Below, in pieces: positions 168-53,038 of a stretch of 64,000 bases of DNA. This DNA is from Escherichia coli (GTDB taxonomy: Bacteria; Pseudomonadota; Gammaproteobacteria; Enterobacterales; Enterobacteriaceae): assembly GCF_016026235.1 (NCBI RefSeq), contig NZ_CP065613.1. One strand, written 5' to 3'. A program made the translations under genes and the position numbers. Position 1 is the stretch's first letter. Every line of letters starts with the position of its first letter. Below the pieces are notes generated by a model. That model was not told where the DNA came from and searched no databases. It saw only the letters and a list, made by a program, of their open reading frames with translations.

Positions 168-1090
168 ACTTTCTCTACCTCCGGGCGACCCAGAATACCG
201 GTCGGCATCACCAGCAGCACCAGAATCAGCAGGGCGAATGAGACCACATCTTTATATTCCGTACTCAGATAGGCAGAAGAGAGCGCCTCCGCAATCCCCA
301 GGATCAGCCCGCCAATCATCGCCCCTGGAATGCTGCCAATCCCACCGAGCACCGCAGCGGTAAAGGCTTTCATCCCGGCCATAAAGCCGATATAGGGGTT
401 AATGACGCCGTAGAACTGACCGAGCAGTACGCCAGCCACTGCCGCCATCGCCGCGCCAATAACAAAGGTCAAAGCAATCACCCGGTCGGTGTTGATGCCA
501 AGCAGGCTCGCCATTTTCAGATCTTCCGCGCAGGCACGGCAGGCGCGCCCCATACGGGAATAACGAATGAAAATCGTCAGCGCCAGCATGGCGAGGAAAG
601 TAACAATCCAGATCACTGCCTGCATGGTGGTAATAGAGGCAGAGAAGTTTTCGCTATGCCCCACCACCCACTGACCGTTAAACAGACTGGGCAGCGCCAC
701 GTCACGCGAACCTTCAGTCAGGCTAACGTAGTTTTGCAGGAAGATGGACATGCCGATTGCCGAGATGAGCGCAATCAGGCGCTTAGAGTTACGCACCGGG
801 CGATAGGCTACCCGTTCGATACTCCAGCCGTAGGCGCTGGCAATGACGATTGCGCCGACGAATCCCGCCGCCACCAGCAGCCAGCCGGTATCAATGCCCA
901 TCATCATCAGCGCGGCGATGATCATAAATGAGACGTAGCTGCCAATCATATAAACCTCGCCGTGGGCGAAGTTGATCATGCCGATAATGCCGTAAACCAT
1001 GGTGTAGCCGATGGCTATCAGCGCGTAGGTACTGCCCAGCGTGACGCCGTTAAACATCTGCTGCAAGAAATACAAAAACTGCTCAGACAT
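164..1090 (-). CDS. livH: Branched-chain amino acid ABC transporter permease LivH
   Basis: 308-aa ORF MSEQFLYFLQQMFNGVTLGSTYALIAIGYTMVYG...; polytopic membrane protein; position in livKHM order. Confidence 0.95.
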   Translation of the reverse strand: MSEQFLYFLQQMFNGVTLGSTYALIAIGYTMVYGIIGMINFAHGEVYMIGSYVSFMIIAALMMMGIDTGWLLVAAGFVGAIVIASAYGWSIERVAYRPVRNSKRLIALISAIGMSIFLQNYVSLTEGSRDVALPSLFNGQWVVGHSENFSASITTMQAVIWIVTFLAMLALTIFIRYSRMGRACRACAEDLKMASLLGINTDRVIALTFVIGAAMAAVAGVLLGQFYGVINPYIGFMAGMKAFTAAVLGGIGSIPGAMIGGLILGIAEALSSAYLSTEYKDVVSFALLILVLLVMPTGILGRPEVEKV

Positions 1091-1137: not shown

Positions 1138-2247
1138 TCACTTGGCTGCCGTGGATGAACCGTCGGCGTGCCACTGGAAGACACCAAAATCAAATCCCTT
1201 AAGATCGCCTTTTTCATCCCAGTTCAGCGGCCCAATCACGGTGTTTGCACCGTTAGCTTTTAAATCTTTCACCAGCGCCAGCGGCTCATCGCTGCCAGTA
1301 CGCTCAAGGGCAGTCGCCAGAGATTGCACCGCCGCGTAGGTGATCCAGACATAAGGCCCGGACGGATCTTTCTTGTCTGCTTTCAGCGCATCAACGATGC
1401 CCTGGTTTGCCGGATCCTGGTCATAGCGTTTTGGCATAGTGACCAACATGCCTTCGGCAGCATCACCGGCAATATTCGACAATGATGCGTTACCCACACC
1501 TTCCGGCCCCATAAACTGAGTTTTCAGGCCAACGGAACGGGCCTGGCGCAGCATCTGCCCCATTTCCGGGTAGTAACCGCCGTAGTAAACGAAGTCGATG
1601 TTTTCTTTTTTCAGGCGGGCGATCAGCGCGGAGAAATCTTTCTCCCCGGCGGTAATACCGTCGAAGAAGACGACGTTGGCGTTAGCCGCTTTCAGCCCGT
1701 CCTGCACCGAACGCGCCAGCCCTTCGCCATACTGTTGTTTGTCGTGAATGATGGCGATGCGCTGGGGCTTCACCGTCTCAAGAATGTATTTTGCCGCCGT
1801 TGGCCCCTGGGAAGAGTCCAGCCCGGCAGTACGCATAATGTGTTGATAACCGCGTTGGGTCAGCTCCGGGTTGGTCGCTCCCGGCGAGATCATCAGAATA
1901 CCTTCGTCTTCGTAGATATCTGATGCAGGTTGGGTAGAAGAAGAACACAGATGACCAATAACGTATTTAATGCCGTCATTAACGATTTTGTTGGCGACCG
2001 CAACGGCTTGTTTCGGGTCGCAGGCGTCGTCATATTCCACGCCAACCAGCTTGTCGCCCTTAATTCCCCCTTTGGCATTAATGTCTTTAATCGCCTGACG
2101 CGCGCCGTTAAATTCCATATCGCCCCACTGGGCAATCGGGCCGGACATCGCGCCGACAACGGCGACTTTAATATCGTCAGCCATAGCGGTGTGTGAAATT
2201 GCCAGTGCAATCATCCCTGCGATGATAGTTTTCGCATTCCGTTTCAT
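1138..2247 (-). CDS. livK: Leucine-specific periplasmic binding protein LivK
   Basis: ORF 1138..2301; start placed at internal ATG 2247 ([37 protein letters not shown]...), giving 369 aa with signal peptide; paralog of livJ. Confidence 0.9.
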
Positions 2248-2670
2248 AGTCAAAAATCCCCATTCGTGATGTTGTGTTGCTTTGTTTTTATGTGTTAACA
2301 AATCAGACTGTTCTTTTTTTATACTGCACTGTTTTTGCCTGTCTGATTAAGGGTTTAGCGCAGTATTTTGTGATAATAGTGATTAAAATCCCTATTTTTC
2401 AGTCGATTAAGAACAGATAATATTCTGAATTTATTGATAGATAAACAGAAAAAAGTGCCTTTGTCAGCATAAAATAACGGCACAAAGGGCGGAATAATTC
2501 ACTACCATTCAGGGGATTATGCTGGGTATTTTTCATTCTCTAATGTTTTAACTTTGTAATTATTGCTGTTAAAAAATTAATCACCTGCCAAAAGAAATAA
2601 AAAAGAGAAAGCCTCCGATTAAATTATTTCGCTACACTGGTTCCACTTTTGTGATTTACACGGGTTACCC

Positions 2671-50687: not shown

Positions 50688-52040
50688 ATGACTAAACACT
50701 ATGATTACATCGCCATCGGCGGCGGCAGCGGCGGTATCGCCTCCATCAACCGCGCGGCTATGTACGGCCAGAAATGCGCACTGATTGAAGCCAAAGAGCT
50801 GGGCGGCACCTGCGTAAATGTTGGCTGTGTGCCGAAAAAAGTGATGTGGCACGCGGCGCAAATCCGTGAAGCGATCCATATGTACGGCCCGGATTATGGT
50901 TTTGATACCACTATCAATAAATTCAACTGGGAAACGTTGATCGCCAGCCGTACCGCCTATATCGACCGTATTCATACTTCCTATGAAAACGTGCTCGGTA
51001 AAAATAACGTTGATGTAATCAAAGGCTTTGCCCGCTTCGTTGATGCCAAAACGCTGGAGGTAAACGGCGAAACCATCACGGCCGATCATATTCTGATCGC
51101 CACAGGCGGTCGTCCGAGCCACCCGGATATTCCGGGCGTGGAATACGGTATTGATTCTGATGGCTTCTTCGCCCTTCCTGCTTTGCCAGAGCGCGTGGCG
51201 GTTGTTGGCGCGGGTTACATCGCCGTTGAACTGGCGGGCGTGATTAACGGCCTCGGCGCGAAAACGCATCTGTTTGTGCGTAAACATGCGCCGCTGCGCA
51301 GCTTCGACCCGATGATCTCTGAAACGCTGGTTGAAGTGATGAACGCCGAAGGCCCGCAGTTGCACACCAACGCCATCCCGAAAGCGGTAGTGAAAAATGC
51401 CGATGGTAGCCTGACGCTGGAGCTGGAAGATGGTCGCAGTGAAACGGTGGATTGCCTGATTTGGGCGATTGGTCGCGAGCCTGCCAATGACAACATCAAC
51501 CTGGAAGCAGCTGGCGTTAAAACTAACGAAAAAGGCTATATCGTCGTCGATAAATATCAAAACACCAACATTGAAGGTATTTACGCGGTGGGCGATAACA
51601 CGGGTGCAGTAGAACTGACACCGGTGGCAGTTGCAGCGGGTCGCCGCCTCTCTGAACGCCTATTTAATAACAAGCCGGATGAGCATCTGGATTACAGCAA
51701 CATTCCGACCGTGGTCTTCAGCCATCCGCCGATTGGTACTGTTGGTTTAACGGAACCGCAGGCGCGCGAGCAGTACGGCGACGATCAGGTGAAAGTGTAT
51801 AAATCCTCTTTCACCGCGATGTATACCGCCGTCACCACTCACCGCCAGCCGTGCCGCATGAAGCTGGTATGCGTTGGACCGGAAGAGAAGATTGTCGGTA
51901 TTCACGGCATTGGCTTTGGTATGGACGAAATGTTGCAGGGCTTCGCGGTGGCACTGAAGATGGGCGCAACCAAAAAAGACTTCGACAACACGGTTGCCAT
52001 TCACCCAACGGCGGCAGAAGAGTTCGTGACAATGCGTTAA
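50688..52040 (+). CDS. gor: Glutathione reductase
   Basis: 450 aa [51 protein letters not shown]...; redox-active CxxxxC, FAD and NADPH GxGxxG/A. Confidence 0.97.
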
Positions 52041-52046
52041 ATGTTA

Positions 52047-52077
52047 AAGGGCAAAGAGTGGTGTGCTCTTTGCCCTT
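52047..52077. terminator. Bidirectional terminator hairpin between convergent gor and dinQ
   Basis: AAGGGCAAAGAG-tggtgtg-CTCTTTGCCCTT (12-bp perfect stem). Confidence 0.7.
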
Positions 52078-52093
52078 AATTACGTTTCCGCTA

Positions 52094-52177
52094 TCAGTTC
52101 AGAAGCTGAAGCAGAAAGCGGATCAGTTCCAGCAGCGCAATTAACGCCCCAAGAACGATGATTGCTTTATCAATCAC
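52094..52177 (-). CDS. dinQ: Type I toxin DinQ (27-aa single-TM peptide), not in the ORF track because <60 aa
   Basis: Reverse strand GTG ATT GAT AAA GCA ... CTG AAC TGA translates (V/M)IDKAIIVLGALIALLELIRFLLQLLN*; GGAG Shine-Dalgarno 7 nt upstream. Confidence 0.8.
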   Translation of the reverse strand: MIDKAIIVLGALIALLELIRFLLQLLN

Positions 52178-52368
52178 CCGTGTTCTCCATACGATGGAGT
52201 GAGAATGCATCCGCTTACTCATCCATTGCCTGTCACGGCGCATGCCCTATTGTTAGATAATGGCATTCTCACTCCGGCCAGAGCATCAGTTAACGGCACC
52301 ACCCGTACCACTGATCAGGACTTTGAAAGCGTTTATGCGCATTGCCAGAGTGAAAATGCCTCAGAGCC

Positions 52369-52388
52369 AACTGGATAATCATACAGTA
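52369..52388 (-). promoter_or_regulatory. LexA (SOS) box overlapping a minus-strand -10 (TATACT), consistent with the dinQ promoter
   Basis: aaCTGgataatcataCAGta (CTG-N10-CAG); reverse-strand TATACT at 52385..52390; predicted transcript about 330 nt to the terminator at 52047..52077. Confidence 0.6.
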
Positions 52389-52439
52389 TATTCAGGTTAT
52401 AAAACCAGCATGTCCTTGCAATAGTTTCAGTATGGTATT

Positions 52440-52533
52440 AGCATTGATGCGTTAGATGATGGCATTCTCACTCCAGCCAGAGCCACCAACTCAGGTCTGG
52501 AAAGTAAAAAACCGACGCAAAGTCGGTTTTTTT
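52440..52533 (+). ncRNA. agrB: Agr-like antisense sRNA (AgrB-type antitoxin RNA of dinQ) with intrinsic terminator; 5' end approximate
   Basis: Contains atggcattctcactccagccagagc, near-identical in direct orientation to 52259..52285 inside the predicted dinQ transcript (hence antisense to dinQ mRNA); ends aaaaaaCCGACgcaaaGTCGGttttttt. Confidence 0.55.
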
Positions 52534-52684
52534 ACGTCCTGATTCAGACCTCCTTTCAAATGAATGCCCAACGCTTAATTCACACCTATACCTTTCTCTA
52601 CACTTACATATTCGTTAAGTCATATATGTTTTTGACTTGTCCGCTTCAAAGAGAGACACTACCTGCAACAATCAGGAGCGCAAT

Positions 52685-53038
52685 ATGTCATTTCTGTTAC
52701 CCATCCAATTGTTCAAAATTCTTGCTGATGAAACCCGTCTGGGCATCGTTTTACTGCTCAGCGAACTGGGAGAGTTATGCGTCTGCGATCTCTGCACTGC
52801 CCTCGCTCAGTCGCAGCCCAAGATATCCCGCCATCTGGCGCTACTTCGTGAAAGCGGGCTATTGCTGGACCGCAAGCAGGGAAAGTGGGTTCATTACCGC
52901 TTATCGCCGCATATTCCAGCATGGGCGGCGAAAATTATTGATGAGGCCTGGCGATGTGAACAGGAAAAGGTTCAGGCGATTGTCCGCAACCTGGCCCGAC
53001 AAAACTGTTCCGCAGACAGTAAGAACATTTGTAGTTAA
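52685..53038 (+). CDS. arsR: Arsenical resistance operon repressor ArsR
   Basis: ORF 52637..53038; start placed at ATG 52685 after CAGGAG RBS (MSFLLPIQLFKILADETRLGIVLLLSELGELCVCDLC...), 117 aa; metal-binding ELCVCDL. Confidence 0.93.
   Translation: MSFLLPIQLFKILADETRLGIVLLLSELGELCVCDLCTALAQSQPKISRHLALLRESGLLLDRKQGKWVHYRLSPHIPAWAAKIIDEAWRCEQEKVQAIVRNLARQNCSADSKNICS

Follow-up and report, generated by a model that had tools for sequence, protein, structure and literature searches.

The dinQ-agrAB locus of Escherichia coli K-12 was described by Weel-Sneve et al. 2013, who reported dinQ, the sRNA genes agrA and agrB, and an "agrAB repeat" inside dinQ (PMC3567139). Control of dinQ by LexA was shown in the same strain, where the gene gives five transcripts and only the +44 transcript is translated (PMC3567139). 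It is processing at +44 that yields this translatable form (PMC3567139, PMC5066626). AgrB is complementary to dinQ at 30/31 nt and AgrA at 25/31 nt; a ΔagrB strain is UV sensitive and grows slowly, and a ΔagrA strain has no such phenotype (PMC3567139).

The RNA switch behind these observations was worked out by Kristiansen et al. 2016 using SHAPE, compensatory mutants and S30 translation, and consists of four elements with mutually exclusive pairings (PMC5066626). They are sequence 1 (U16-C28), sequence 2 (G94-G106), sequence 3 (U167-U178) and sequence 4 (A182-G187), the last of which includes the Shine-Dalgarno (SD) sequence (PMC5066626). In the +1 RNA, the 1:2 stem is formed and the SD is sequestered by 3:4; in the +44 RNA, which has lost sequence 1, 2:3 is formed and the SD is open (PMC5066626). 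AgrB binds G88-A119, which frees sequence 3, re-closes the SD and makes a substrate for RNase III, and AgrA does none of these things (PMC5066626).

The tisB-istR1 pair of E. coli is another LexA-controlled type I toxin-antitoxin system, unrelated to dinQ/agr in its sequences and its peptide. For tisB, a mechanism involving a ribosome standby site has been described. As with dinQ, its expression is SOS-induced, its inert primary transcript is activated by 5' processing, and a divergent, trans-encoded sRNA acts upstream of the ribosome binding site (RBS) (PMC5066626). zorO-orzO and the dql (dinQ-like) genes, which occur on plasmids and chromosomes of Enterobacteriaceae, also have long 5'UTRs, processing-dependent translation and sRNA targets ahead of the RBS, and the four-element architecture of the 5'UTR is shared by the dql genes (PMC5066626; PMC5397157). 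These are other loci with other peptides, and the locus described here is a true dinQ and not a dql paralogue.

The gor–arsR locus and its single agr gene

The DNA that we analysed is a 64-kb stretch from E. coli (the window). Its region of interest is very probably a natural, single-agr allele of the dinQ/agr type I toxin-antitoxin locus on the chromosome. What the initial annotation reported is an already known system whose RNA switch is published, in an allele that is common in nature and present in many sequenced strains. The features of the locus are as follows.

50688..52040, + strand: gor (gorA), glutathione-disulfide reductase, left flank; a 450-aa ORF, annotated gorA in EC1515
52047..52077: stem-loop, terminator common to gor (+) and dinQ (-), SL9 of the dinQ mRNA; from the terminator scan and an inverted repeat
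52094..52177, - strand: dinQ coding sequence, 27-aa membrane toxin, GTG start at 52175..52177 (+195 of the mRNA); from the ORF and RefSeq
52185..52190, - strand: sequence 4 (A182-G187), holding the SD GGAG (52185..52188); coordinates from PMC5066626 with GUG at +195
52196..52208, - strand: sequence 3, the anti-SD, mRNA nt 164-176, GCAUUCUCACUCC; an inverted repeat, 13/13 complementary
52252..52284, - strand: Agr target block in the dinQ 5'UTR (mRNA nt 88-120), including sequence 2 (G94-G106); a direct repeat
52259..52266: 8-nt variable segment of the target, AATGGCAT on the + strand; from allele comparison
52328, - strand: equivalent of the +44 processing site (U44); coordinate transferred from PMC3567139 and PMC5066626, local CGCUUUCAAAGUCCUG conserved
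52344..52360, - strand: sequence 1, mRNA nt 12-28, GGCAUUUUCACUCUGGC; the 5'-end element, pairing with sequence 2 in the full-length transcript
52371..52386, - strand: LexA operator CTGTATGATTATCCAG, a CTG-N10-CAG match covering the dinQ -10 and +1 (52371)
52416..52444, + strand: agr promoter of the agrA slot, with -35 TTGCAA (52416..52421), a 17-nt spacer and -10 TAGCAT (52439..52444)
52451..52535, + strand: single Agr antisense sRNA, ~85 nt, matching Rfam AgrB over its full length; its 5' 33 nt (52451..52483) are antisense to the dinQ mRNA
52506..52532, + strand: agr terminator hairpin; an inverted repeat
52685..53038, + strand: arsR, right flank; an ORF, annotated arsR in EC1515

The spacer between the end of gor (52040) and the start of arsR (52685) is 644 bp long (52041..52684), the length given in the initial annotation, and dinQ lies inside it, convergent on gor. 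Ten complete genomes, E. coli EC1515 among them, have the 680 nt around the spacer at 100% identity, and the RefSeq annotation of the EC1515 locus reads gorA, dinQ, arsR. The 27 codons of dinQ are the C-terminal part of a 49-aa minus-strand ORF whose last 27 aa are VIDKAIIVLGALIALLELIRFLLQLLN. This is a small hydrophobic ORF with an SD (GGAG) 7 nt upstream of its GTG, and accession WP_001295215.1 is common to K-12 and the 100%-identical EC1515 locus. That the minus-strand ORF marks a dinQ type I toxin locus, as first proposed, is borne out by the ORF, the accession and the EC1515 match together. The proposed LexA box, CTGGATAATCATACAG at 52371..52386, likewise holds and overlaps the putative -10 (TATGAT, 52378..52383, minus strand); in the alignment, the predicted operator region is identical in sequence to that of K-12.

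The GUG of K-12 dinQ is at +195 of the mRNA (PMC5066626), which puts +1 at 52371, +44 at 52328 and the 3' end near 52041 in the window. The first two are the equivalents of the positions mapped in K-12, and the stem-loop at 52047..52077 is at the position equivalent to the K-12 dinQ terminator (PMC3567139, PMC5066626). The transcript ends, the +44 processing site and repression in the window allele are all transferred from K-12. A consensus promoter scan picked up neither the dinQ nor the agr promoter, and only one unrelated match on the + strand, because its thresholds are too strict for these promoters.

For the sRNA, the Rfam AgrB model (RF02891) matches 52452..52535 on the + strand over model positions 1-84, scoring 103.2 bits where the gathering score is 40. 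This identifies the terminator-ended top-strand unit as an Agr antisense RNA, which is what the initial annotation had taken it for. We found no second match to the model in the spacer or in the whole 64-kb window, and under the same model K-12 has two matches, 231 nt apart. Aligned to the 912 nt of K-12, the 680 nt of the window locus lack exactly one repeat unit of 232 nt, and the claim of one agr here against two in K-12 is correct. The window does not have the pair of paralogues (agrA and agrB) seen in K-12, and this pair is a trait of the K-12 allele and not of the dinQ/agr family.

In other respects, the window matches K-12 in its site (gor-arsR), DinQ peptide, LexA operator, dinQ terminator and four cis elements, and both have a divergent ~85-nt sRNA with a 5' antisense stretch and an intrinsic terminator, in flanks that are ~93-94% identical. 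Apart from the missing unit, they differ in the 8-nt target/antisense segment, which is AATGGCAT / GATGGCAT in the window and AAGAACTC in K-12, in the position of the cognate sRNA, which is the agrA slot in the window and the agrB slot in K-12, and in the lengths of stems 1:2 and 2:3, which are 17 and 13 bp in the window and 13 and 9 bp in K-12. Read from the sequence, the window agr promoter is identical to the region upstream of K-12 agrA, a promoter that is active in K-12. The single agr has a promoter and 5' end of the agrA-slot type and a 3' body and flank of the agrB-slot type.

Pairing of Agr and the cis elements with the dinQ leader

The initial annotation noted a block of ~27 nt in the dinQ leader that recurs in the top-strand unit. 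The repeat is real, and we refined its bounds to 33 nt (52252..52284 and 52451..52483), with 31/33 identical positions; of the two that differ, one is a G-U wobble. The 18-nt core of the repeat has exactly two occurrences in the whole window, where 0.05 are expected by chance. Over the 31-nt stretch used in the published comparison we read 29/31 complementary positions plus one G-U wobble. The 5' end of Agr is near-fully complementary to the dinQ 5'UTR upstream of the RBS, and the K-12 mapping puts the block within both the +1 and the +44 transcripts, in agreement with its placement in the mRNA by the initial annotation.

The predicted strength of this pairing is close to that of the active K-12 antitoxin. 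RNAduplex gave -62.0 kcal/mol for the window Agr with its own target, compared with -62.1 kcal/mol for K-12 AgrB with dinQ and -46.6 kcal/mol for K-12 AgrA with dinQ, a combination that is inactive in experiments. In cofolds with the window +44 mRNA we obtained -129.9 for its own Agr and -116.5 for K-12 AgrB; with the K-12 +44 mRNA the values were -129.9 for AgrB, -114.4 for AgrA and -113.5 for the window Agr. Going by these values, the window pair and the K-12 pair are predicted to be mutually orthogonal; the gap between own and foreign sRNA in these cofolds is about the same as the gap between active AgrB and inactive AgrA in K-12. Because its antisense segment fits the strain's own dinQ target variant, the window Agr should act as the cognate antitoxin, and, going by sequence and duplex energies, it should correspond in function to K-12 AgrB, not to AgrA, which is inactive in K-12.

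The leader also has the inverted 13-mer (GGAGTGAGAATGC, 52196..52208) that the initial annotation had reported just upstream of the SD. It is 100% complementary to 52263..52275 and to 52462..52475 within agr; by our own arithmetic, ~0.004 such inverted 13-mers are expected by chance in 721 nt. This is sequence 3, which is invariant across all alleles that we examined. Its pairing in cis with the block stands. It is not a decoy, as had been suggested, and the idea is not new. The polarity proposed for it, cis-sequestration, was the reverse of the published one, as 2:3 (stem S2) in the K-12 switch permits translation (PMC5066626). By holding sequence 3 off the SD, 2:3 pairing allows translation, and with Agr on sequence 2, sequence 3 would close the SD hairpin.

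In silico, the four cis elements are able to form 1:2, 2:3 and 3:4. The minimum free energy (MFE) fold of the +1 transcript has a 1:2 stem of 17 contiguous pairs (G12-C28 / G94-C110) and the SD hairpin 3:4, in which sequence 4 pairs with nt 173-176. In the +44 MFE fold there is a 13-bp 2:3 stem where sequence 3 pairs with G97-C109, and the SD is paired with nt 89-92. With the target variant of the window, both cis stems are longer (17 bp for 1:2, 13 bp for 2:3), with duplex energies of -35.2 kcal/mol for 1:2 (K-12, -28.7) and -25.6 kcal/mol for 2:3 (K-12, -20.1). Folding of the leader with and without Agr, which the initial annotation had suggested as a check, bears out the switch in part: 2:3 appears in the +44 fold, and the cofold of the +44 mRNA with Agr reproduces the pairing of Agr with sequence 2 but not the closure of 3:4, for either the window or K-12, as the MFE structure pairs sequence 3 elsewhere. 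SD accessibility, and 3:4 closure after Agr binding, would follow here by analogy with published experiments on K-12 (SHAPE in the case of closure).

Sequence 1 (52344..52360) was overlooked by the initial annotation. It is the real intramolecular competitor of Agr, and it occupies the same block in the full-length transcript. We also considered whether the 5' end of the dinQ leader could be a full inverted agr paralogue and rejected this. The likeness is unconvincing beyond the first ~28 nt, and global alignment of the leader with inverted agr scored 45, where shuffles had a mean of 35 ± 4.4 and a maximum of 53.

The locus would then work as follows, with mechanism steps shown in K-12 and carried over to the window by sequence identity. 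LexA would repress dinQ, and DNA damage would induce an mRNA of ~331 nt (52371 to ~52041, minus strand). The full-length RNA would be untranslated, with sequence 1 paired with sequence 2 and sequence 3 free to sequester the SD (3:4). Processing at +44 would remove sequence 1, so that 2:3 pairs, the SD opens and the 27-aa membrane toxin is made. The 5' ~33 nt of Agr, presumed constitutive, would pair with mRNA nt 88-120, displacing sequence 3, re-closing the SD and creating a substrate for RNase III.

Copy number of agr and the origin of the single copy

We looked for the diagnostic segments of the locus in 5,426 complete E. coli genomes. At least one agr is present in 5,410 of them, the inter-agr spacer (at least two copies) in 3,842, and the dinQ promoter plus leader segment in 4,610. 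The inter-agr spacer occurs twice, which means three copies, in ten genomes, for example OkiPb01708. We estimated the allele classes by subtracting the presence counts of these three segments, treating the sets as nested and detection as complete: by subtraction, ~1,570 genomes (~29%) have one agr, ~770 (14%) have one agr and an intact dinQ promoter like the window, and ~800 (15%, ~1 in 7) have no dinQ promoter. An even sample of 40 rows from the match ranking had proportions compatible with these estimates. In promoter-less genomes such as DA33135, the dinQ block is fused directly to the agr body, and both promoters (of dinQ and of agr) are lost together with the leader. With one agr in ~29% of complete E. 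coli genomes, a single copy is not unusual, and T1TAdb lists AgrA as present only "in some bacterial strains" (PMC8594479).

A single copy could also be produced by an assembler that collapses the tandem 232-bp repeat, and some loci do look like this. Short-read metagenome contigs with single-copy loci and a mismatched agr (L039, L045, L056 and others) resemble collapsed K-12-type loci. There are nine such single-copy contigs with a K-12-type or other target and a mismatched AgrA-type sRNA. When we searched with one of them, we found no complete genome of that structure, and its best single-piece matches, 98.4% identical, were to a different, well-matched allele. On this evidence, these contigs are probably short-read collapses of the tandem units. 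The metagenome contigs were rejected as an unbiased measure of copy number, and they are not used for the frequencies above. For the window, we regard an assembly artefact as extremely improbable. The 680-nt stretch is found in a single piece at 100% identity in 10 independent complete genomes from different hosts, the best 60 matches among complete genomes are all single-copy, and ~1,570 of the 5,410 agr-bearing complete genomes are without the inter-agr spacer. In addition, the retained copy fits a target that co-varies with it (see the next section), a match that collapse would not produce.

If the single copy is real, the gene that was kept might be the wrong one, namely an AgrA-type non-functional paralogue, with the true antitoxin lost and dinQ held in check only by LexA and the inert +1 structure. 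The retained copy occupies the agrA slot and has the promoter of agrA, its 5' end starts with GATGG like K-12 agrA, and K-12 AgrA does not repress dinQ (PMC5066626). However, the target in the window is AATGGCAT and not the AAGAACTC of K-12, and the retained copy pairs with it 15 kcal/mol better than K-12 AgrA pairs with dinQ. All five single-copy alleles from complete E. coli genomes that we examined (window/EC1515, 20220828076, MS145-7, ATCC 11775 and ECNB21-M121) keep a well-matched copy, at -57.5 to -62, the single copy of E. albertii is also well matched as judged by sequence, and we found no complete genome with a K-12-type target and AgrA alone. We therefore consider a non-functional remnant very unlikely. 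The retained agr copy fits the strain's own toxin mRNA, which makes the locus ordinary and not new.

As for how a functional single copy came about, the sequence fits an unequal recombination event between two tandem units of 232 bp, with a crossover that would fall in the shared stretch 52466..~52497. Some two-copy alleles (O157 F6321, L060 and L041) share both the target and the cognate proximal copy with the window, and alleles of these types are plausible parents. The other possibility is that the single copy is ancestral, that the two-copy state of K-12 arose by duplication and that no second copy was ever present in the lineage of the window. E. albertii and Escherichia sp. E1V33 each have one proximal, well-matched agr, and the target/Agr pair of E1V33 is that of the window, AATGGCAT / GATGGCAT. 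On the other hand, the window agr is a mosaic, with a 5' part like the proximal copies of O157-type alleles and a 3' body and flank like the distal copies (GGAAAGTAAAAAAC..., ACGTCCTGATTCAGACC), and this is the pattern expected from unequal crossover between two units. E. whittamii also has two agr copies, which means that the duplication predates E. coli. We judge an ancestral single copy to be the less likely history, at perhaps one chance in a few, and it bears on history only, as the working of the locus is unchanged.

Variation of the 8-nt segment across lineages

Across 13 complete-genome loci, outgroups and metagenome contigs, the 8-nt target segment has at least six forms, and in almost all intact loci the form in the target is shared, exactly or nearly so, by one agr copy. 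The exception is L055, where neither agr copy matches. The matching copy is the distal one in K-12, DETEC-P666, A10, TUM1223 and OkiPb01708, and the proximal one in the window, 20220828076, MS145-7, O157 F6321, EC11, 98232, ATCC 11775, ECNB21-M121 and E. albertii. The invariant parts of the block are GTTAGAT and TCTCACTCC. Variation is probably confined to the 8-nt segment because these invariant parts include nucleotides that pair in cis with sequences 1 and 3.

Between alleles, 5-6 of the 8 positions differ simultaneously, for which gene conversion among the direct repeats would be the economical explanation. We lean slightly towards the view that gene conversion among the three repeat copies moves the 8-nt 'specificity' segment, giving lineages with mutually orthogonal pairs of toxin mRNA and antitoxin RNA. 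We found nothing in the searchable literature on 8-nt co-variation, or on phylogroup or copy-number variation of agr. Of the whole picture, only this co-variation may be new, and it is a modest point.

If gene conversion does work in this way, the description of AgrA as a non-functional paralogue would be a peculiarity of K-12, and the same repeats would also drive the loss of one copy, as in the window, or of the whole regulatory region, as in the B2-type fusion alleles. K-12 is not representative of this locus: some 3 in 10 complete E. coli genomes have a single agr, ~1 in 7 are without the dinQ promoter, and the slot of the matching antitoxin differs between lineages. The labels "AgrA" and "AgrB", when given by position, can mislead annotation, and dinQ/agr phenotypes in strains other than K-12 should be interpreted with slot and copy variation in mind. 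The natural orthogonal pairs could also be used as existing compensatory-mutation controls in work on the antisense mechanism.

Copy number and placement of agr

The dinQ/agr locus extends beyond E. coli, as it is also found in E. albertii (L014), in Escherichia sp. E1V33 (L021) and in E. whittamii (L020). E. albertii and E1V33 both have one agr, which is proximal (in the agrA slot) and well matched to its dinQ target, and the E1V33 8-nt types, the variable segments common to target and agr, are those of the window. E. whittamii has two agr copies. Within E. coli, the copy number reaches three in one compared locus, and the inter-agr spacer is present twice in 10 complete genomes.

L013 (E. 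coli OkiPb01708), 1932..2477: three-copy agr allele, with one agrA-type copy and two identical agrB-type copies

Fusion alleles without the dinQ promoter

In some alleles the dinQ block and the agr body are fused.

L003 (E. coli DA33135), 832..917: fusion allele in which the dinQ 5'UTR block directly abuts the agr body

The same fusion allele occurs in L035, L065, L083, L087 and L091. The fusion removes the agr promoter, the dinQ promoter, the LexA box and nt 1-87 of the dinQ leader. By subtraction of presence counts, we estimate that, among 5,426 complete genomes, about 800 have no dinQ promoter segment. At the fusion locus of DA33135, a genome that also lacks arsR, the RefSeq annotation continues to read 'damage-inducible type I toxin DinQ'.

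Window features and plasmid matches

Two further features of the window come from an ORF listing and from Rfam.

52199..52378, plus strand: 59-aa ORF on the strand opposite the dinQ leader (ORF listing)
61285..61316, minus strand: shuA/chuA 5'UTR thermoregulator (Rfam, 60.1 bits vs gathering score 58)

The ORF is probably a spurious call across the dinQ 5'UTR. PGAP labels the corresponding 57-aa ORF 'hypothetical protein' in some genomes (MS145-7, TUM1223, 98232) and leaves it unannotated in others. The gor–arsR spacer also holds an imperfect 15-nt inverted repeat (80%; 52314..52328 vs 52529..52543), with one arm in the region of the dinQ +44 processing site, the other immediately past the agr terminator.

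Because of the thermoregulator match, we take the strain to have the chu haem-uptake locus. Together with the intact arsR beside dinQ, this suggests a background that is neither A/B1 nor B2.

A spacer version of K-12 type (query L056:11197-11876) gave 81 plasmid matches at >=99% identity, and the window version gave none. The K-12-type matches may be short matches to dinQ-like (dql)/agr plasmid loci or to cloned K-12 DNA.

Mismatched agr in metagenome contigs

In a set of single-copy metagenome contigs (L039, L045, L056, L063, L075, L079, L086, L025, L077 and L070), the sole agr fits its dinQ target poorly, with duplex energies of -44.7 to -49.1 kcal/mol. A search of complete genomes with one of these contigs as query found none that has a single-copy locus of this kind. 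These contigs are probably tandem units that were collapsed during short-read assembly. Another metagenome contig, L055, has two agr copies (GATGACTA and AAGAACTC; -46.2 and -45.2 kcal/mol), neither of which matches its dinQ target (AATGGCAT); this may reflect chimeric assembly or an allele that is truly mismatched. If the single-copy mismatched loci are real, they would be counterparts in nature of the K-12 ΔagrB mutant.
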